From the NCBI GenBank assembly GCA_041395165.1, contig JAWLBA010000001.1, positions 328,068-392,067 on the forward strand: 64,000 nt of DNA. The letters are read 5' to 3'. This stretch comes from Verrucomicrobiia bacterium (lineage in GTDB: Bacteria; Verrucomicrobiota; Verrucomicrobiia; JADLBR01; JAIBCM01). This document shows, piece after piece, positions 8,351 to 23,005 of the stretch (position 1 is its first letter; every line of letters starts with the position of its first letter). Position numbers and translations under genes: made by a program. The notes beneath the pieces are model-generated. The model was not told the DNA's origin. It did no database searches and worked only from the letters and a program-made list of their open reading frames with translations.

Positions 8351-9485
8351 GGGATGGTTTTGGGGGTGGACTTTGCTGGCATTTGTCTGGTGGTGTATGG
8401 CACTTGGGCTCGTGAAACGAAAAAAAATGGAATTACCCGAAAGTGGTAAAGGTAAAAAGATTGCGTTTTTAACCATTTTTAAACCTGTGCCTTTGACTTC
8501 TGATTGTCAAAATATAGCCAGAATTGAAAAAGCGTTAGAATCTTTTTTATCTCAATTGGATGAAGGATGCGAGGTGTTGCTTGGGTTTTGGGAAGGTGAA
8601 CGCAAATTGTGGCAACCTATTTTGGATAAGTGGACATTAAGTTTTTCTCATGTCTGGAAACAAGTTAAAATCGTTTGGCGAACGGAACCGGATCGATTTC
8701 CTAATCCTAAAATTTCGTGGCAACGGATTTTGTCCCGTTATGCTCAAGGAGAATGGTGGTTATGGAGTGATGTGGATATTGTCGCGCCACCAGGTTTTAT
8801 ACGAAGAGCGCGAGAAGAATTTGCTCAAGGGAATGGGCGGCTTTTAACGCATGCTTATGTGATTAGACATTTTGATTCGGTTCCGGCGATGTTGGAAACG
8901 CTTTTTGTGAATGTGGAACTTTTTCCTGGCATTATGGCGTTGACGCAAAAAAAAAGGAAGGATTTGGGTTTTGGCGCGAGTTTGCTTTTTCATGCTGATG
9001 AGGTAAAAAATTCTATTTTTTGGGAAACGCTAGGATGTTCCTTGGCGGACGATTTTGTGTTGGGGAAAAGGTTGGGAAATTCACAAGTTGGTGAAGATAT
9101 TTTGGAAACTACCGCAGAGGAAAAGGGGTGGGGAAAGGCGCTTTTACACTATTTGCGTTGGCAAAAGACGATTCGATGGTGTCAGCCCGTGGGTTTTGCG
9201 GCACAAGTTATTCTTTTTCCATTGTTGGGTTGGTTTCTTTTTTTGGGTTTGGATCATAGGTGGGGGGTGGGGTTATTGGGGATATTAATAACATTGCTGA
9301 TGGAGCTTATTTTTGCCAAAACGTTATGTAGGAAAGTAAATTGTATTATGCTATGGCGCCATTCTTGGGGTATAGTAGCGTGGAGTTTGATTCGAGTTAT
9401 GGGTTGGCTGATTTGTTGGTTGCCCTGGCCGGTCAAATGGGGCCGAAAAAAATGGTGGAAAGATAAAATGACACACGCTGTATGA
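8340..9485 (+). CDS. integral-membrane glycosyltransferase (GT2/GT21, ceramide-glucosyltransferase / HpnI-like)
   Basis: One N-terminal and several C-terminal TM segments. It has a DxD-like motif WSDVDIV and an (R/Q)xxRW-like motif LRWQKTIRW. Its start overlaps the epimerase stop. Confidence 0.6.
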   Translation: MLVEGWFWGWTLLAFVWWCMALGLVKRKKMELPESGKGKKIAFLTIFKPVPLTSDCQNIARIEKALESFLSQLDEGCEVLLGFWEGERKLWQPILDKWTLSFSHVWKQVKIVWRTEPDRFPNPKISWQRILSRYAQGEWWLWSDVDIVAPPGFIRRAREEFAQGNGRLLTHAYVIRHFDSVPAMLETLFVNVELFPGIMALTQKKRKDLGFGASLLFHADEVKNSIFWETLGCSLADDFVLGKRLGNSQVGEDILETTAEEKGWGKALLHYLRWQKTIRWCQPVGFAAQVILFPLLGWFLFLGLDHRWGVGLLGILITLLMELIFAKTLCRKVNCIMLWRHSWGIVAWSLIRVMGWLICWLPWPVKWGRKKWWKDKMTHAV

Positions 9486-10573
9486 AGGAAAGAAAAGTTT
9501 TGAGAGATCGAAATGCTCATTTCGAAAATAATGCTTTCGAAGTGCAATCTATTGCTCAGGGAGGAGCCTTACGCAATGAGATTTTCGGGAATAAAGTTTT
9601 TGTGCGTGGCGTGATAGAGGTTTCTAATTTTTGCCGGCAAAATTGTTGTTATTGTGGTATGCGACGCGAAAATCAGGGATTAAGTCGTTATCGTCTTTCT
9701 TTGGAACAATTAAAAGAGGTTATTCTTGAGCAACTTCCGGCAAGTGTTACTGATATTAATTTGCAAGCAGGCGAAGATCCAGTTGCGGTTCGCGAAATTG
9801 TTCTTCCGTTGATTCATGCGATCAAACGAGAAACTTCTTTAGGGATTAGCGTTTGTTTGGGTACTTTGGATAAGAGTCTTTACGCCGCATTAAAAGAAGC
9901 GGGAGCAAGTTATTATATTTTAAAATTGGAAACGGGCAATGCTTGGCATTATCAACAAGTGCAAGCGCCGGGCAATTTTCAACGACGTTTGGAAACAATT
10001 CGATTTTTGGCGGAAACAGGCTGGTTTGTTTCTTCTGGCTTTATTTTGGGGTTGCCTCAACAAACACAAGCCCATGTCGAGGAAACGCTTCATTTACTTT
10101 CTGATTGCTGGTGGGAGGTAGTGTCAGCCCTTTTATTCCAGGTGATCAAACACCTTATCGCGAAGAGCCTATAGCAAGTTTAGAATCAGTTTTGAAATGT
10201 TTGGTTTGGATGCGATTAAAAAATCCGCATTGGATTATTCCTGCAGTCAGTGCCATGAACCTCGTTGGGGATCGAGGTTATCCCGACTTTGGAAGCAGGC
10301 GCGAATTTGGTGACTATTAATTTAACGCCGGAAACGCAAAGGAATGATTATCTGCTTTATAAACGCAATCGCTTTATCATGAGTGAAGCCCGTGTGTTGA
10401 AAACAATCGAACAGGCGCAATGTGAACCAAAAATACGAAAGCTTAACTCAATTTTTAAAAACAAAATCCAGTTTTCGAAGTTGTCGCTGCTTGATTTTGA
10501 ACTTTGCTTAAGGACCTTTAGCACCTTTTTTCTTTATCATTTTTTGGGTGAGCACGCGATTGACTGCATTTAA
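9482..10573 (+). pseudogene. radical SAM enzyme (HydE/BioB-like) disrupted by at least two frameshifts
   Basis: CxxxCxxC cluster motif NFCRQNCCYCGMRR. The reading frame jumps at about 10105 (frame 2 reads LVGGSVSPFIPGDQTPY) and again at about 10265 (frame 3 reads EVIPTLEAGANLVTINLTPE...Y.LY). Both continuations match HydE-type C-terminal motifs. The true 3' end is uncertain. Confidence 0.6.
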
Positions 10574-12048
10574 ATAGCGCGAACACTAGCTTCAATAACG
10601 TCCGTGCTGGCTCCTTTGCCTGTGACAAGTTCGTTATTGCCAAAATCAATTTTTATTGTGACTTCGCCAACAGCGTCCTTGCCTCCAGTAACTGCATGCA
10701 ACTGGTAATCTTTTAATGCCCCACGTTTACCCGTGATGCGATCGATTGTTTTTAAAGCGGCATCAACGGGACCATCACCGTGCTTGCATCCTGTTTAATT
10801 TCGTTGCCTGTTTTTAATCGGACGGTAGCAGTGGCGATAGTTTTATTTCCTGTGGTGACGTTCAAATAGTCTAAAGTATAAGTTTCGTGTGTTTCTAAAA
10901 CTTGATCGTCGATCAATGCTGCCAAATCATCGTCGTAAACAAATTTTTGCGATCGCCGATTTCTTTAAATCATACAAACACCGCATCCATTTCTTTTTCT
11001 GTGAGTTGATAGCCCAAATGTTTTAATCGTATTGCCATAGTGACGACCGCTGTGTTTAGTTAATGGCAATTCTGTGTCGCCCCATCCTACATCGTGCGGG
11101 TCCATAATTTCATACGTTTCTCGCTTTTCAAAATACCGTCTTGATGAATGCCAGAGCTGTGAGCAAAAGCGTTTTCGCCTACGATCGCTTTATTGCGTTG
11201 CACTAAAAAGCTGCATGCGCGAAACTAAGCGAGACAATTTTACAATTTCTCGTGTGCGAATGTTGGTTTTGATGCCTTGATAAATATCCGGGCGCGTTTG
11301 GATTGCCATGACCACCTTCTTCCAAAGCGGCATTGCCTGCGCGTTCACCAATTCAGTCAATAGTGCATTCCACCTGACGCGCTCCCGCCTGCACGGCGGC
11401 TAAAGAATTGGCTACCGCCAATCCTAAATCGTTATGACAGTGTGTGCTGAAAATAGCATTTTTTGCGCCTTTAGCATTTTCTATCACGTAACGAAACATG
11501 TGCGCGTAAGCTTCCGGAGTGGAATAACCCACGGTGTCTGGCATGTTAATTGTCGTAGCGCCTGCAGAAATGGCCGCCTCCACAATTTTCACGAGAAAAT
11601 CTAATTCTGTTCGAGAAGCGTCTTCCGGTGAAAATTCAATATCTTTGACATGAGTGCGCGCGCGTTTCACGCCTTCCACGGCCAAACGTAAAATTTCGTT
11701 TTGTGCTTTGCCAAATTTAAATTCGCGATGAATCTTGGAAGTGCCGAGAAAGACATGAATGCGCCCGCGTTTTCCGGCTGCTTTCAAAGCGGCGCCCGCA
11801 GCATCGATATCTTTGGGAACGCAACGTGCTAATCCCGTAATAATGGGAGTTCGAATTTCTTTAGCAATTTGAGAAACGGACGCGAAATCTCCGTCACTAA
11901 TGACTGGAAAACCTGCTTCGATAATGTCTACGCCTAAGCGCTCGAGTTGTCGCGCTACTTCCATTTTTTCACGGTTATTCATGCTTGCGCCCGGGCATTG
12001 CTCGCCATCGCGCAAGGTGGTATCAAAAATTCTAACTTTTTCGCTCAT
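10508..12048 (-). pseudogene. leuA: 2-isopropylmalate synthase; the 5' 231 codons are intact and the 3' half is heavily degraded
   Basis: The N-terminus reads IFDTTLRDGEQ...HCHNDLGLAVANSLAAV...ECTI. An in-frame TGA follows at 11353-11355, where the Gly of GIGERAGN is expected. Hand translation of the remainder recovers [91 protein letters not shown] and GDGPVDAALKTIDRITG. Recovering these pieces requires about 7 frame changes and passing a second in-frame TGA. Confidence 0.8.
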
Positions 12049-12071
12049 AACTTTTCTTTCTCATTTTTTCC

Positions 12072-12102
12072 ATAAAAAAACCCCACTTACCAGTGGGGTT
12101 AA
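12072..12102 (-). terminator. intrinsic terminator of a leuA leader (attenuator)
   Basis: The minus strand reads AACCCCAC-TGGTAA-GTGGGGTT followed by TTTTTTT. It ends about 25 nt before the leuA ATG. Confidence 0.6.
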
Positions 12103-12124
12103 ACCAAAAATTCTTCTTTTCAGG

Positions 12125-12196
12125 TTAACACCCCGCCATCACGTTGCTCAATAGTAGCAGCGCTTTTTCACTTAAGATGGCAGGAAAATTAACCAT
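12125..12196 (-). CDS. candidate leu leader peptide (23 aa) with four consecutive Leu codons
   Basis: Hand translation gives ATG GTT AAT TTT CCT GCC ATC TTA AGT GAA AAA GCG CTG CTA CTA TTG AGC AAC GTG ATG GCG GGG TGT TAA, that is MVNFPAILSEKALLLLSNVMAGC. The stop region GGGGUGUUAACC can pair with the 5' arm of the terminator (GGUUUAACCCC). A possible promoter is TTGACG (12228-12233), a 17-nt spacer, then TAAATT (12205-12210). Confidence 0.5.
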   Translation of the reverse strand: MVNFPAILSEKALLLLSNVMAGC

Positions 12197-12373
12197 AATA
12201 TAATAATTTAACAGGCTTAATTTTGTCCGTCAATTTTATTATTTTTTTGTTCTTTCTTAAGTAACTCTCGAAGAAAAACTAGATCCATTTCATCTTTGGC
12301 GCGGTGGGTTTTTCTCTTATTTCTTCGTCCAAGTTAGCATTTCTAGTCACCGTTGATCACTTTTCTTCAAAGT

Positions 12374-12934
12374 TTAAGCTCGACTCATATAGGAGCCGGT
12401 GCGCGTGTCGATCTTGAGTGATTCGCCTTCCTTGATGAAAAGAGGCACTTGCACTTGAAGGCCGGTTTCCATAGTGGCTGTTTTCATGACGTTATTGGCA
12501 GAATCGCCTCGAATGCCTTCTGGTGATTCAGTCACTTTTAAAACAACGCTTGAGGGTAATTCTAAAGAGACGGCTTTGTCTTCAATAAAAAGCACTTCAA
12601 CACTCAAATTTTCCACCAGGTAATCTTTGGCCTCGCTGATTAAATCTTCCTGTAACGTGTAAGTATCATAGGATTGCGGATCGATAAAATGATAGCCATT
12701 TTGATCTTTGTAACTGAATTCTAATTTGCTTCGGTTCAACATAACTTCTTCGACTTTTTCTGTGCTGCCGAAAAGTTGCACTAAAGATTTTCCCGTATTG
12801 ACACTGCGAAGCGTGGCTTGCACAAAAGCGCGAAGATTGCCGGGAGTGCGATAGGAAACTTCCAACACCACACAAGTATCATTATTATGTTTGATTGCCA
12901 TACCTTTACGAAGGTCGTTTGCGTTAACTGCCAT
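12374..12934 (-). CDS. efp: elongation factor P
   Basis: A full-length 186-aa ORF with typical EF-P sequence (NDLRKGMAI..., ...VQVPLFI.EGE.I.IDTRTG.Y..R). Confidence 0.95.
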   Translation of the reverse strand: MAVNANDLRKGMAIKHNNDTCVVLEVSYRTPGNLRAFVQATLRSVNTGKSLVQLFGSTEKVEEVMLNRSKLEFSYKDQNGYHFIDPQSYDTYTLQEDLISEAKDYLVENLSVEVLFIEDKAVSLELPSSVVLKVTESPEGIRGDSANNVMKTATMETGLQVQVPLFIKEGESLKIDTRTGSYMSRA

Positions 12935-12956
12935 AGGATTTCTTTCTTCTTTTCGA

Positions 12957-13921
12957 TTATACTAATTTATGTTTAGCCAAATCTTGCGCATCCACAAGAC
13001 CGACAGGGTTACTTTTGTGGTCGATAACAACTAAATCGTCAATATTATGTTTTTCAAAAAATTTTTAAAGCTACCGCCAGCTTGTCTTTACCGACAGTGA
13101 TGGTGTGATGTCATAACTTTTTTAATTTTTTCCTGACCAATTTGTGAATTGGTTTGATAGTAACGGGCAAAATCGCCTGAGTAAAAATACCGGCCAGTTT
13201 ACCTCGAGAATCGACGACGATCGCAGCTCCCGCGCGAGCTTTTGTTGTGGCTGCCAAGGCTTGCATGACCGTTGCAGTTTCTGAAACCAGTGCCATTTGG
13301 TCGGGTGGACGCATGACATCGGAGACACGGAGTAGTAAATTTTTTCCAATGGTTCCACCAGGATGGAATTTCGCGAAATCTTCTTTTTAAATCCCGTGCT
13401 TCTAATAAAACCATCGCTGAGGGCGTCGCCTAGAGCTAGCATGGCGGTTGTGCTAGAGGTAGGAGCTAAATTCAGCGGACAAGCTTCGCGTTTCACTTTC
13501 ACATCTAAATGAATGTGCGCGCTGCGGGCTAATGTGATTTGGCATTGCCTGTCATGGCAATCATTTGAATGCGATGTCGAGCAAGTGCTGGCAGAGCTTG
13601 TAGCACCTCCTGAGTTTCGCCGCTATAACTGAAAATGAGAAGTGTGTCTCCTTCTGAAAGAATCCCTAAGTCGCCATGCAAAGCATTCACACAATTCAAA
13701 TAAATACAAGGTGCTCCCGTGCTGGTTAACGTGGCGGCAATTTTTTCTGCGATATGTCCTGATTTGCCAATGCCGGTAGCAATGATTTTATTGCCCTTTT
13801 GCAAGCTTTGCAGCATTTGCTTAACCGTATTGGTAAAGGAAATGCCCAAACGCTTTTTTAAATCGTTCAATGCGGAAATTTCTAAATCAATTACCGCGCG
13901 CGCTTTTTTAAGGTAGTCCAT
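12957..13921 (-). pseudogene. kpsF: arabinose-5-phosphate isomerase (KpsF/GutQ, SIS plus CBS domains) with about five frameshifts
   Basis: The N-terminal 130 codons are intact and contain the SIS motif (ATGIGKSGHIAEKIAATL). The remainder is spread over three frames: EACPLNLAPTSSTTAMLALGDAL, EDFAKFHPGGTIGKNLL, AIVVDSRGKLAGIFT, PITVGKDKLAV and NIDDLVVIDHKSNPVGLVDAQDL. Track ORFs 13111..13314 and 13122..13502 are fragments of this gene. Confidence 0.8.
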
Positions 13922-13962
13922 GAAATAAGAAAAATAGCTTATCGAATTGTGCTAAGGCGTCA

Positions 13963-14865
13963 ATGGATGTAATACAAATATCAATTATGCCAAAAATAGT
14001 GGGGTATACCAAAATTATTTCCAGTTTAGGTGCTCATGTTTCTATCGCGGGCGGCTTTGATTTGTCAATTGATCGGGCTTTATCCGTGGGATGTGGCGTG
14101 ATGCAGATTTTTGTAAAAAGCAATCGTCAATGGTTTGCGCCTCCTTTGAGGCAAGAAATGTGTCGTCCTTTTCTGGAGCATCCTCGTCGAAAAGAGTTAC
14201 AATGTGTTTTTGCGCATAGCGGTTATCTTATTAATCCTGCAGCTCCTGAGGGGGATGTGAGAAAGAAATCGATTCATGCTCTCGTTGAAGAATTGCAGCG
14301 GGCGGATCAATTACAGCTGCCCTTTTTGGTATTGCATCCTGGCGCTCATTTGGGTGTGGGTGTGGAAGCGGGAATACGTCGGGTTGTTAAAGCGTTGAAC
14401 GAGGTGATTGAGAAGACCTCGCATTTAAAAACGTGCATTGCTTTGGAAACCACTGCGGGTCAGGGAACCTCAATTGGGCATGAGTTGGAGCATTTGGCTT
14501 CTATTTTAGGAAAGGTGAAAAAGCCAAAACGATTTTGTGTTTGTGTTGATACTGCGCATCTTTTTGCTGCGGGTTATGAGATTCATATAGAAAAGGGTTA
14601 TGAAAAAACGGTTTCGCGATTGGATGAATTAATCGGTCTAAGGCAAATTGCGGCTTTTCATTTGAACGATTCCAAGACAGCTTTGGGATCGCGAGTGGAT
14701 CGACACGAGCATATTGGCAAAGGGAAGATTGGGTTGTCGACGTTTCGATGGTTGCTGAATGATAAGCGTTTTTTTGCTGTTCCCAAAGTTTTAGAAACTC
14801 CGAAGAGTGAGGATATGCATGAAGATCGTGAAAATCTTCAGAGACTTTATCAGTTGTTGAAGTAA
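13963..14865 (+). CDS. nfo: endonuclease IV (AP endonuclease)
   Basis: GAHVSIAGG near the N-terminus and the conserved metal-ligand His/Asp/Glu pattern of the Nfo TIM barrel. The true start may be the Met at 13987. Confidence 0.9.
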   Translation: MDVIQISIMPKIVGYTKIISSLGAHVSIAGGFDLSIDRALSVGCGVMQIFVKSNRQWFAPPLRQEMCRPFLEHPRRKELQCVFAHSGYLINPAAPEGDVRKKSIHALVEELQRADQLQLPFLVLHPGAHLGVGVEAGIRRVVKALNEVIEKTSHLKTCIALETTAGQGTSIGHELEHLASILGKVKKPKRFCVCVDTAHLFAAGYEIHIEKGYEKTVSRLDELIGLRQIAAFHLNDSKTALGSRVDRHEHIGKGKIGLSTFRWLLNDKRFFAVPKVLETPKSEDMHEDRENLQRLYQLLK

Positions 14866-15863
14866 GACAGTTTTTTACTAAGGATGGATGCAATAGAGTC
14901 AGAGGATAATGCGTGAAAACATTTGCCGCTCACACCTTCAGGACACAGTTTTTGCTTTGTCTTTAAACAGTCACAAGAGGAAATTATGATATCGGCCTGA
15001 GGATTTAAAGGGTGCCACTGAGGAGCATTCGAAGGGCCGTAATGAACGAGCATGGGTTTTTGTAAGTCAGAGGCAAGATGAGTGGGAGCGGTGTCAACAC
15101 CCCAATAAACATCACTTTTTGAGACGAGGGCAATCAGCTCACCCCAACTGAGTGCGGGCATCATTTTGAGATGGGCTGTTGGAAAATTTTGGATGCATTA
15201 GGTTACATAATCTTTTTCTTGCAGTGCTGTGCCGTGTGTAAAAATGATCGCGCAATTTTGTTTTATTAAATGGGCTATCACTTCGCGAACTAGAGAAATG
15301 GGTAGGCTTTTTGCATGTCGCGCGAGGTCAGATGGGCTAGCAATATTTTTTATCAGAATAAAGTGCTGAAGAGTGATGAGATAGAAAGTCTTGAGCTTTT
15401 TGGCTTGCTTTGAGTTCTAGAGAAATGCCTTGGAATGAAACATCGCAAGTTTCGAGGAGTTTTTGATGTTGATATAAGATGTGCGGTTTCTTTTTTCGTG
15501 AGAGATGCGGATGTTGTAAGTTGACTGCGCCATCGTTGCTGCGCGGCTTTTTCTTTTCGTAACTGATTCGATGTTTGGCATGCGAAAGTAGGGTTAAAAA
15601 TGCGGTGCGATCGTTGCCGCAAGATCAATTGTCCAATCGTAATGTTGGTTAAAAATGTGAAAAAGTATAGGAAGCGTCGCAGATTGAGAGCGAGCCATTT
15701 TAAAATATGGAATGAATAAGGAAAGTGTTCTAAAAGCAACTTCGGTTCCTTGAGGAATGAGAATGTCGATTTGGGCTTGAGGGAACCGTTTGGCTAGTGC
15801 GTAAAACGGGTCGAGTTAAAAGTGTGTCCCCTAAATAGCGGAGGCATAACACTAAAATTTTTT
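14850..15863 (-). pseudogene. GT9 ADP-heptose:LPS heptosyltransferase (RfaF/RfaC-like), fragmented
   Basis: The intact C-terminal 104 codons read WGELIALVSKSDVYWGVDTAPTHLA. The N-terminal KILVLCLRYLGDTLLTRPVLR and the following YDWTIDL and ...IIFTHGT... pieces sit in different frames with stops between them. Confidence 0.7.
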
Positions 15864-15876
15864 TAGGTTTCACGCG

Positions 15877-16826
15877 CTAACGTCGGGTTGAATGGTCGAT
15901 TTGGTAGACGGTTTTATTTTGGCTTTCGTAATAAATGCGCACGAGCAATTCGCTAATTAATCCTAGCATAATGAGTTGTAAGCCAACGATGATCAGGAGA
16001 ATACCTAAAAATAAAAGTGGGCGTTGGCCAATGTTTTCATGAGCGAAAAATTTTAGGCCTGTGAGGTAAAGACTAATGGCCACTCCCAGGCCGGTGAAAC
16101 AAAAGCCGGCTGTGCCAAAGACGCGCATGGGTTTGGTAGAATATTCCAAAAGAAATTTTACAGTGAGCAGGTCAAGCAGAACGCGAAAAGTGCGATTCAA
16201 ACCATATTTGGAAACGCCTTGCGTGCGCGGCCGATGATTGACTGGAATTTCAGCGACTTTGGCTCCTCGCCATGTGCAAAGCGCTGGTAAAAAACGGTGC
16301 ATTTCGCCGTATAATCGAAAACTGGAAATAGTTTCTCGGGTGTAGACTTTTAAGGAGCAGCCGTAATCGTGTAATGGCACGCCAGTAAAAAAGGAAATTA
16401 ATTTATTGGCTATGCGAGAAGGTAAAGTGCGAGTTAAAAAGTGGTCTTGACGCGCTTTTCGCCATCCGCTTACGACATCGTAGCCTTCCGCCATTTTGTT
16501 GAGTAATGCCATGATGTCGGCAGGATCAGTTTGGCGATCGGCATCCATCGTGACAATGACTTCTCCAGTGCTGATATCAATGCCGGCGGAAAGGGCAGCA
16601 GTCTGGCCAAAATTACGTTTTAAAAATAGCGGTTTGAGACGCGGTGAAGCTTTAGTAATGTTTGTATTTTTCGCGATTCATCGGTGCTGCCATCGTCGAC
16701 TAAAATGATTTCCCATGTGGCAGAATAACTTTGTAGTGCAGTTTCGATTTCTTGGATCAAAGGCGCGAGATTGCCGCTTTCATTATAAATCGGCGCTACG
16801 ATGCTCAAAGTAGGAAAATGAGTCAT
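15877..16826 (-). pseudogene. GT2 polyprenol-phosphate glycosyltransferase (DPM1/ArnC-like) with one frameshift near 16670-16690
   Basis: The 68-aa N-terminal ORF reads SIVAPIYNESGNL...ILVDDGSTDES. The 223-aa ORF reads MDADRQTDP... with two C-terminal TM helices. The bridging segment LKRNFGQTAALSAGIDISTGEVIVTMDAD reads in the downstream frame. The two ORFs are out of frame. Confidence 0.7.
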
Positions 16827-16885
16827 GAAGGTGATATGTTACTGAACTACGGGTTGGCATCCAGCAAATTTAATGGATCAAAAAA

Positions 16886-17503
16886 TTAATAAGCCCGCAG
16901 TGAAGTGAGATAGTCGCGTGTATGAAAGAGATGACGTTTTAAGCGACCCACGTCTTGAGTGGTTTTCATTAAGAGAAGAGCTCCTTGCAAGTCGCCAACT
17001 AAAAAATCAGCAAGTGCTTTGCAATCCACAGCTTCGTAAAGCTCACCTATCGCCTTGGCTTCTTCTAAAAGTTTTTGCCAAAGGCCGCTAGACTCGTCGA
17101 AAATTTCAGCTAATCTCAAACGAAATCCGGGATGTCTTTCACTTAGTTCCTGAGCTAACATCCCGAATGGACAACCGGTGGGACATTCATGTTGACTGAA
17201 ATCGTTAATGAGATTTTCGAAGTGTAAATTGAGCCGTTCCATAGGCGATTTATTAACCTGACCTAGAGACAAACTAGTGAAATTCATAAGACGTTCGCGA
17301 AAACGTTCAATCACTGCGTAGCCTAAAGCTTCTTTAGATTTAAAATAATAGAAAAAAGAGCCTTTGCTCATGCCTAATTCTTTTAAAATATCGTCCAAAG
17401 TGGTTGCATGAAACCCTTTTTTACGCATCAAAGTGCAAGCAATCTCGACGATTTTTTCTCGCGTGGGATAATGCTTGCCTATAATTAAATTCGACATTAC
17501 CAA
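16886..17503 (-). CDS. TetR/AcrR-family transcriptional regulator
   Basis: N-terminal HTH REKIVEIACTLMRKKGFHATTLDDILKELGMSKGSFFYYFKSKE. Confidence 0.85.
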   Translation of the reverse strand: MVMSNLIIGKHYPTREKIVEIACTLMRKKGFHATTLDDILKELGMSKGSFFYYFKSKEALGYAVIERFRERLMNFTSLSLGQVNKSPMERLNLHFENLINDFSQHECPTGCPFGMLAQELSERHPGFRLRLAEIFDESSGLWQKLLEEAKAIGELYEAVDCKALADFLVGDLQGALLLMKTTQDVGRLKRHLFHTRDYLTSLRAY

Positions 17504-21958: not shown

Positions 21959-23005
21959 ATGGCTTTGGAAGAAATCATTCAAGCAAAACTTAAACAGGTG
22001 AAATATCCGGGTTTTAGCCGGGATATTGTTTCTTTTGGGTTAGTTCAATCGGTTCAAATTGAAAAAGGGGTGGCTGTCATTACTTTATCCCTCTCAACGA
22101 ACGAAGAAGCGGTAGTGGACAAGTTGCGAAACGACATTCAGGTTGCTTTAGAAGATATTCAAGAGATTGAACGTTTTGATATTCATATTCTTCGTCAGGC
22201 AGTTGCGACTCCAGCAAAAACATCGCCGAGCGATTCTCAATTTTCCATTCCTGGCGTGAAACATATTATTGCCGTTGCCAGCGGTAAAGGTGGGGTGGGT
22301 AAATCCACAGTTGCTGCCAACTTAGCATGCGCCTTTGAACAAATGAATTTGAAAACGGGCCTTTGCGATTGCGATATGTATGGTCCGAGCATGGCATTGA
22401 TGTTTGGCACGACAGAAAATCCGCAAGCAACTGAAGATGAAAAAATCGTTCCCATTGAGCGTTACGGGCTAAAATTAATGAGCATGGGTTTTTTGGTCGA
22501 TGCTGCTGCCCCGGCAGTTTTACGCGGCCCTATGGTAACACGTTTTACTCAACAATTTTTACGTGGCGTTGTCTGGGGTGATTTGGATGTTTTGATTTTG
22601 GATTTGCCACCAGGCACAGGCGATATTCAACTGACGGTTGTGCAAAATGTAGTGTTAACAGGCGCTGTCATTGTCACCACACCACAAGAAGTAGCACTCA
22701 TTGATGCGCGAAAAGCGGTTGGCATGTTTGGCAAAGTGAATGTCAAAATCCTCGGCTTGATCGAAAACATGAGTTATTTTTTGTGTCCCAGCGATGGCAA
22801 GCGTTACGATATTTTTGGGAGTGGAGGAGGTAAGGCGGAAGCAGAAAAATTGGAGGTTCCCTTGCTGGCGCAGATTCCTATTGATATGGCAACGCGAGAA
22901 GCGGGCGATCAAGGAAAACCTGTCGTTTTACGCTATCCGGATATGCCAGTTAGCCGGGCATTTCGAGAGGCGGCTGAGAAGATTTGGACAGACTTTAAAA
23001 ATTAG
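21959..23005 (+). CDS. Mrp/ApbC/NBP35-family Fe-S cluster carrier ATPase
   Basis: An N-terminal DUF59-like region and the deviant Walker A motif VASGKGGVGKSTVAANLA. The CPxxG-type motif reads FLCPSDGK. Confidence 0.9.
   Translation: MALEEIIQAKLKQVKYPGFSRDIVSFGLVQSVQIEKGVAVITLSLSTNEEAVVDKLRNDIQVALEDIQEIERFDIHILRQAVATPAKTSPSDSQFSIPGVKHIIAVASGKGGVGKSTVAANLACAFEQMNLKTGLCDCDMYGPSMALMFGTTENPQATEDEKIVPIERYGLKLMSMGFLVDAAAPAVLRGPMVTRFTQQFLRGVVWGDLDVLILDLPPGTGDIQLTVVQNVVLTGAVIVTTPQEVALIDARKAVGMFGKVNVKILGLIENMSYFLCPSDGKRYDIFGSGGGKAEAEKLEVPLLAQIPIDMATREAGDQGKPVVLRYPDMPVSRAFREAAEKIWTDFKN

Follow-up and report, generated by a model that had tools for sequence, protein, structure and literature searches.

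A candidate ribosome-mediated leucine attenuator upstream of leuA in a Verrucomicrobiia bacterium and its recurrence in related lineages

Locus organization

The stretch of DNA analysed here (the window) comprises 64,000 nucleotides of the assembly GCA_041395165.1 of a Verrucomicrobiia bacterium (contig JAWLBA010000001.1, positions 328,068 to 392,067) and carries on its minus strand the gene leuA, coding for 2-isopropylmalate synthase, which is preceded by a short leader separating it from efp. This leader very probably represents a classical leader-peptide, ribosome-mediated transcription attenuator which would tie leuA transcription to the availability of charged tRNA-Leu. The genome from which the window derives (G000, with the window at C1:328068-392067) amounts to 1.78 Mb in 26 contigs, possesses a G+C content of 42.5% and was scored 83% complete. 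The features of the locus are given below from efp to leuA, each with its coordinates within the window.

12934-12374, minus strand: efp, the stop of which lies 274 nt upstream of the hairpin on the shared strand.
12233-12205, minus strand: promoter-like site identified by a consensus scan, with the -35 box TTGACG (12233-12228), a 17-nt spacer, the -10 box TAAATT (12210-12205) and a TG before the -10 box.
12204-12197, minus strand: spacer of 8 nt between the -10 box and the leader ATG.
12196-12125, minus strand: leader peptide open reading frame (ORF), taken from the ORF list, with 23 codons plus TAA (12127-12125), encoding MVNFPAILSEKALLLLSNVMAGC.
12194-12176, minus strand: region 1, the 5' strand of the predicted protective helix (anti-antiterminator), on which minimum free energy and centroid folds agree.
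12160-12149, minus strand: Leu run (putative regulatory codons), CTG CTA CTA TTG, consecutive.
12140-12123, minus strand: region 2, GAUGGCGGGGUGUUAACC, comprising the last leader codons and the stop, with region 1 or region 3 as its partner in constrained folds.
12137-12092, minus strand: predicted antiterminator helix 2:3, in which GG.GGGGU...AACC.UGAAA pairs with UUUUU.GGUU..ACCCC.CC in nascent-RNA folds under a ribosome mask.
12100-12093, minus strand: terminator 5' arm (region 3), AACCCCAC.
12092-12087, minus strand: terminator loop, TGGTAA.
12086-12079, minus strand: terminator 3' arm (region 4), GTGGGGTT, which reads GUGGGGUU in the RNA.
End at 12074, minus strand: T run of 7 T in all, two of which reside inside the 8-bp stem, leaving 25 nt to the leuA ATG.
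12048-10500, minus strand: leuA (2-isopropylmalate synthase), with a Pfam HMGL-like match at E = 4e-79, monocistronic.

A preliminary description of the window had reported a 23-codon minus-strand ORF with the codons CTG CTA CTA TTG between efp and leuA, and this ORF is present as claimed. The same description had placed a hairpin with a U-run approximately 25 nt before the leuA ATG; here, both the hairpin and its position were found to be correct, whereas the run counts seven T and not the nine that were implied. With regard to the codons themselves, genome-wide Leu codon usage amounts to 6.9% for CTG, 5.9% for CTA, 31.9% for TTG and 28.6% for TTA, and three of the four control codons are CTG or CTA, the two Leu codons used least in this genome. 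A search of the G000 genome revealed no second copy of the leader, the element thus being single-copy. A genome-wide scan of G000 for any amino-acid-run mini-ORF followed by a hairpin and a T-run returned 315 hits, which were mostly intragenic and noisy and, apart from the leuA leader itself, did not bring up a convincing leader for trp, his, thr or ilv.

Predicted folding and switch logic

The 201-nt region was found to fold with z = -3.9 as compared to dinucleotide shuffles. Folding of the predicted transcript (12198-12066) under a ribosome mask yielded three different situations. In the ribosome-free fold the helix formed by regions 1 and 2 coexists with the terminator, with a total of -46.7 kcal/mol. 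When the ribosomal A site is placed on any of the four Leu codons and the transcript ends before the terminator 3' arm, the antiterminator (12137-12092) is predicted at -14.8 to -16.1 kcal/mol, as compared to -15.3 kcal/mol for the terminator hairpin with its 8-9 bp stem; both states for which an energy comparison had been proposed in the preliminary description were hence identified. Finally, with the ribosome at UAA, region 2 is covered and the terminator alone forms. The spacing of the elements is such that the last Leu codon resides 13 nt upstream of region 2 while the stop codon is located within it, and the earlier proposal that the leader stop-codon region (GGGGUGUUAACC) pairs with the terminator 5' arm is borne out by constrained folding. 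Taken as predictions, these folds give the textbook three-state logic of an attenuator.

Promoter and start of the leader

In at least 21 of 41 leaders, a promoter that matches the consensus at 8 or more of 12 positions ends 5-10 nt upstream of an in-frame start codon, and the histogram of promoter-to-start distances possesses its peak at 6-10 nt (24 hits in 5 of approximately 100 bins). In the window, the candidate sigma-70-type promoter would start the transcript at the leader ATG or 1-2 nt upstream of it. As a -10 box ending 5-10 nt before the AUG leaves no room for a Shine-Dalgarno sequence, the leader ORF is inferred to be leaderless or near-leaderless, and the mini-ORF is probably translated from an mRNA of this kind.

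Comparison with a genome of the same genus

The order efp, leader and leuA is shared by a second genome of the same genus (G001), in which leuA is intact and encodes 519 aa. From the promoter to the U-run (162 nt) the two leaders differ at 2 positions (1.2%). The first of these is the only change inside the ORF, a synonymous Leu exchange from TTG to CTG at 12151, which leaves the leader peptide of G001 identical and yields a Leu run (CUG CUA CUA CUG) in which all four codons are rare; the second is a single base past the stop codon. The third codon positions of the two genomes differ by 14% in efp and by 27% in the 5' part of leuA, the first 230 residues of which share 98% identity with G001. 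The low divergence of the leader as compared to the 14-27% documented for third codon positions points to strong purifying selection on the leader, roughly equal to that on first and second codon positions.

Recurrence upstream of leuA in relatives

Regions upstream of leuA were collected from 20 class-level relatives, from 40 further genomes across the GTDB phylum and from 80 named genomes of many phyla, the latter being a scattered sample among the matches listed, without close relatives (best 74% identity, an Akkermansia metagenome-assembled genome, MAG). A strict automatic detector, requiring a terminator and a Leu-rich mini-ORF, was applied to these regions; several positives recognized by eye fall outside its length limits, and the count for Verrucomicrobiota is a lower bound. 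It was positive for at least 30 of 61 Verrucomicrobiota leuA loci (at least 49%) and, among the matches listed, for 6 of 22 other named loci from Planctomycetes-Verrucomicrobia-Chlamydiae (PVC) lineages, Planctomycetota or Omnitrophota and for 4 of 46 non-PVC named loci, while 3 of 500 control regions upstream of long ORFs in G000 (0.6%) were positive. A comparison of the leuA upstream regions of relatives, as had been proposed in the preliminary description, revealed a Leu-run mini-ORF and a hairpin to be conserved.

In most families of the Verrucomicrobiae a Leu-rich mini-ORF is followed 20-50 nt on by a hairpin and a U-run before leuA, with leader peptides such as MKSVHFTMQFLLLRLRRDKVGC, MKILDLLLALEALLLGGRPGSGS, MNRNLNLSLALLGLLLERQAVG, MNALQLTGLGLLLLRRRSVGCVSA and MIRSGLLRRLLLLLLLEG, and the element was also identified in many other families of the phylum Verrucomicrobiota. 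It is likewise carried by MAGs of the Kiritimatiellia and Lentisphaerae (e.g., ...QALNLLALRGDTRATAGDGCCAG) and of the Planctomycetota (e.g., MASLNLLRLLLLALSGRQP and MNMSFLLRLNLRLPLVLRGET). No Leu leader was seen upstream of leuA in the sampled loci of Alphaproteobacteria or Leptospira.

As a separate observation, Leu-rich ORFs with a terminator were encountered before leuA at two non-PVC loci, namely in a Gemmatimonadales MAG (L072, MQLVLLVVLLSVLLTVLIGELGARDVLGRAT) and in Opacimonas viscosa (L081, MKIYDMTFNLLGLLLLPANKHG). It was further observed that leader peptides of distant loci from Verrucomicrobiae, Kiritimatiellia and Planctomycetota (L017, L023, L101, L103, L032, L034, L117, L070, L074 and L050) share a common LNLL...ALRL-like core and that, at the RNA level, many of these leaders possess a small hairpin with the Leu codons as its 5' arm (e.g., CUGCUGCUUAGCAGCAG). 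The common core together with the Leu-codon hairpin hints at common ancestry or at a shared pause-hairpin constraint.

The recurrence of the element also bears on a simpler explanation, according to which the hairpin with its U-run is the terminator of efp and the Leu-run mini-ORF a chance ORF without regulatory role. The position of the hairpin downstream of efp on the same strand, at a distance of 274 nt, would be in line with this explanation, as would the lack of any further predicted terminator in the interval, and in its actual position the hairpin would also halt read-through from efp. The mini-ORF and the terminator, however, recur before leuA phylum-wide under different neighbours, while among the fetched loci efp was found upstream of leuA in the two same-genus genomes only, which argues that the hairpin is not simply an efp terminator. 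Moreover, a good promoter with conserved spacing is located between efp and the ORF, the near-invariance between species extends beyond the hairpin to the whole 162-nt leader, and the false-positive rate of the combined pattern amounts to 0.6%. An efp terminator accompanied by a chance ORF is hence considered highly improbable. The preliminary description had itself named a hairpin serving merely efp, without a promoter at 12205-12233, as an outcome that would speak against attenuation; instead, the element was found to follow leuA and a consensus promoter match resides at the respective position. The intergenic part between the efp stop and the leader promoter (12234-12373, 140 nt) is well conserved too, differing from G001 by 6 substitutions (4.3%), and no efp terminator was predicted within it.

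Conservation of the switch itself

Conservation of the alternative pairing was addressed with 30 leaders, for each of which the optimal duplex of the terminator 5' arm with the upstream region was scored against 200 dinucleotide shuffles. In nearly all of these leaders the segment partnering with the terminator arm overlaps or directly adjoins the leader stop codon, in most of them it begins 5-32 nt past the final Leu codon of the densest Leu stretch, and the terminator begins 22-51 nt past the leader stop. Complementarity exceeds that of the shuffles (p <= 0.06) at 19 of the 30 loci. At one locus (L015) the terminator core has changed from CCCC/GGGG to CCUC/GAGG, and the upstream strand changes along with it. 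RNAalifold, applied to a rough MAFFT alignment, recovered the base of the terminator, where 5 of 6 consensus pairs show compensatory changes. As the MAFFT alignment matched the terminator and left the antiterminator strand unaligned, the shuffle test and a swap test were used in place of a formal covariation count. In the swap test, in which homologous leaders served as decoys, a terminator arm finds a stronger partner in the leader of its own locus than in those of other loci, with a mean rank of 10.4 of 38 as compared to 18.5 expected (z = -4.6).

These features also bear on the idea that the product of the locus acts otherwise than as a sensor in cis, i.e., that the mini-ORF encodes a small functional (e.g., membrane) peptide or that the region gives rise to a trans-acting small RNA. 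Leader peptides and leader RNAs with trans functions are known from Sinorhizobium (PMC7298713), the leader peptide described here is hydrophobic, and the promoter and the terminator delimit a discrete RNA of approximately 125 nt. What relatives retain, however, is the Leu run, the spacing between this run and the stop codon, and the RNA complementarities, while sequence and length of the peptide vary freely; furthermore, the element is always located directly upstream of leuA and is single-copy in the genome. A function in trans can hence be granted only a very small chance.

State of leuA in the assembly

The leuA gene is open for 231 codons (12048-11353) in the assembly and frameshifted thereafter. 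In comparison with G001, eight indel lesions were identified (11316, 11215, 11128, 11040, 10946, 10779, 10576 and 10471-5), all of which fall within the 3' 850 nt of the gene, and the nearby kpsF, a radical-SAM gene and glycosyltransferases are broken in the assembly as well. The preliminary description had accordingly spoken of a dead leuA behind an intact regulator. The lesions are indeed part of the assembly, but six of the eight were not encountered in contigs which stem from three independent studies and are identical in other respects, and this part of the description was not supported.

For this comparison, contigs of public wastewater and activated-sludge short-read runs were analysed over the region, those of the G000 type deriving from the studies P1, P2, P3, P4 and P6. 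Over more than 3 kb outside the lesion patches, nearly all G000-type contigs are identical to the assembly, with 0 differences in the leader (12067-12250); two contigs which run across the border of the leuA patch near 11355 have 2 substitutions apiece. In the patches themselves, contigs and assembly differ by approximately 21 indel columns as compared to approximately 9 substitutions. The lesions 11316, 11215, 11128, 10779, 10576 and 10471-5 are absent from G000-type contigs of the independent studies P1, P3 and P4; at every covered lesion, including those in kpsF and in a glycosyltransferase, the contigs show the frame-preserving state found in G001, and no G000-type contig shows the frameshifted state at the covered lesions. 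The lesion patches (approximately 10100-11330, 12950-13430 and 16620-16800, within 9400-16900 of the window) were seen to alternate with stretches that match the contigs exactly or nearly so. Indel-rich patches alternating with clean stretches suggest error-prone sequence that was joined to accurate contigs and not evolutionary decay.

A true pseudogene in this strain, with the attenuator surviving as a relic of recent loss of the gene or retained on other grounds, would likewise account for the eight lesions and the broken neighbouring genes, and could be reconciled with a small genome, scored as incomplete, in which leuB was not found. In the assembly, which is 83% complete, the sole gene to match the leuB model is isocitrate-dehydrogenase-like and is truncated where contig C17 ends (22200-22999). 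The absence of all six contig-covered leuA lesions in three independent studies, the exact or near-exact match of the contigs outside the patches and the predominance of indels within them, which is typical of sequencing error and not of natural decay, stand against gene death, as does the finding of intact, neighbouring leuC (475 aa) and leuD genes on contig C9 (47635-49700). Two considerations weigh in the opposite direction, namely that the leuA lesions 11040 and 10946 are covered by no contig, and that the public runs may exclude the source sample, leaving room for a pseudogene specific to its strain. On balance, gene death in this strain is regarded as unlikely and the leuA frameshifts are, with good though not full confidence, attributed to local assembly error, the remaining probability falling to a strain-specific pseudogene. 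The element thus most probably controls a working leuA in the living organism.

Proposed mechanism

Based on the elements, folds and comparisons described above, the following course of events is suggested. Transcription would start from the sigma-70-type promoter (12233-12205) at or within 1-2 nt of the leader AUG, so that the leader ORF would be translated without a preceding leader. When Leu-tRNA is plentiful, the ribosome would reach the UAA and thereby cover region 2 (GGCGGGGUGUUAACC); with region 2 covered, the terminator AACCCCAC/GUGGGGUU and its U-run would form and transcription would end 25 nt short of leuA. When Leu-tRNA is scarce, the ribosome would be expected to stall on CUG CUA CUA UUG, i.e., mostly on the rarest Leu codons of the genome. 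A ribosome stalled there would leave region 2 free to capture the 5' arm of the terminator while the 3' arm has yet to be transcribed, whereby RNA polymerase would enter leuA. If no ribosome is loaded, region 1, located at the start of the ORF, would sequester region 2, rendering termination the default outcome. Within this scheme the transcription start, the translation of the ORF and the response to leucine are inferred.

Several findings weigh against this mechanism. When the full-length RNA is considered at equilibrium, the terminator is favoured even under the ribosome mask; read-through must hence depend on the order of co-transcriptional folding, as in other attenuators. For this locus alone and with a narrow definition of the arm, the antiterminator complementarity is only marginal, with p = 0.055 as compared to shuffles and a rank of 7 of 38 in the swap test. 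The leader sequence was not present in the metatranscriptome runs that were found, all of which are tiny. Nor is the element universal: in an Akkermansia-like genus (g7; L019, L021, L102 and L108) leuA lacks both a Leu mini-ORF and a terminator upstream, and the element is likewise missing in a further family (f9; L104, L105 and L109) and in several others, from which it would follow that the attenuator was lost or replaced in some lineages. Finally, in the passage of PMC1262725 that cites earlier experiments, some actinobacterial Leu leaders before leuA, when mutated, are described not to behave as strict attenuators. A side observation concerns the Akkermansia-like genus, several genomes of which possess a second, shorter leuA-like paralogue approximately 20 kb away.

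Taking both sides together, ribosome-mediated Leu attenuation before leuA, as put forward in the preliminary description, is strongly supported by structure, geometry, sequence conservation and comparative genomics.

Significance

Gene regulation in Verrucomicrobia and in the PVC group as a whole is almost unstudied, and the leader offers a concrete, widely conserved and experimentally tractable cis switch. It suggests that supply of amino acids in PVC bacteria is sensed by ribosome stalling, in a manner similar to enterobacteria but with a leaderless mini-ORF. As the mini-ORFs and leaders match no current family, the approximately 40 leaders that were collected could serve as the seed of an RNA family model, to the benefit of annotation. 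The apparently decayed genes clustered at this locus, being probably an assembly artefact, should not be used to infer gene loss or reductive evolution.

A further-reaching idea, which is put forward tentatively and which we would not at present favour over its opposite, is that the leuA leader represents one ancient, vertically inherited and leaderless RNA family of the PVC group, comprising Verrucomicrobiota (including Kiritimatiellia and Lentisphaeria) and Planctomycetota. Its marks would be the LNLL...ALRL-type core and a three-strand switch of GGGGUG, AACCCCAC and GUGGGGUU, and such a family is neither in Rfam nor was it found in the literature. If this holds true, leaderless leader-peptide attenuation would be a basal mechanism in a superphylum with almost no characterised cis-regulatory RNA.

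Comparison with known systems

A permissive Rfam search (cmscan, E <= 10) of positions 11900-12500 returned no Leu_leader, T-box or riboswitch and yielded sub-threshold noise only, with Phe_leader (22 bits, gathering score 55) and Trp_leader (15 bits) as the best leader-type scores. A T-box leader was considered as a candidate and set aside, as no T-box covariance-model match was obtained in this interval. The leader peptide itself found no match when searched against Pfam and NCBIfam by hmmscan. The open-access literature, to which the survey was confined with subscription-only papers outside its scope, provided no report of such leader-peptide attenuation in Verrucomicrobia, Planctomycetes, Akkermansia or Rhodopirellula. 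Together with the Rfam searches, this is consistent with the earlier statement that the mechanism is not described for PVC-type bacteria.

Leader-peptide attenuators have been predicted in Proteobacteria and Firmicutes (Vitreschak et al. 2004, cited after PMC1262725; PMC2965389), and a Leu-rich attenuator peptide belongs to the ilv-leu operon of S. aureus (PMC5794164). Naville and Gautheret (2010) stated that leader peptides were known only in Proteobacteria and Actinobacteria and added cases from Firmicutes (PMC2965389). The element described here shares its architecture, its inferred mechanism and the comparative type of evidence with these predicted attenuators of Proteobacteria and Firmicutes, whereas the PVC phyla were not reported in the respective surveys.

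The closest functional counterpart in terms of logic is enterobacterial leuL (RF00512 Leu_leader, PF08054), which likewise consists of a short ORF containing a run of four mostly rare Leu codons of the CUN type, a terminator just before leuA, an antiterminator making use of the terminator 5' arm and a protective upstream helix. No homology to leuL in sequence or structure was detectable, however, and the gene organization differs, as a leuABCD operon is found there and a monocistronic leuA here. Enterobacterial leuL is translated from a conventional 5' leader, whereas the Verrucomicrobiota leader ORF appears to be leaderless, with the -10 box ending 8 nt before the AUG.

In this latter respect the Actinobacteria are more similar. 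Their leader ORFs are often leaderless, and leaderless short-ORF attenuators occur in mycobacteria, a property which the leader ORF described here would probably share. With the actinobacterial LEU element and the leuA leader peptide of C. glutamicum (mentioned in PMC3890552) it further shares the arrangement of a Leu-codon ORF before a monocistronic leuA in a non-proteobacterial phylum. The LEU element was described as a pseudoknot between the Leu codons and the leuA Shine-Dalgarno sequence, exerting translational control and often possessing no clear terminator (PMC1262725), in contrast to the canonical hairpin and U-run with a terminator/antiterminator alternative that precede leuA here. 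As judged from these comparisons, the leader appears to be a known type of regulator, a leucine attenuator, in a phylum for which it is apparently described here for the first time.

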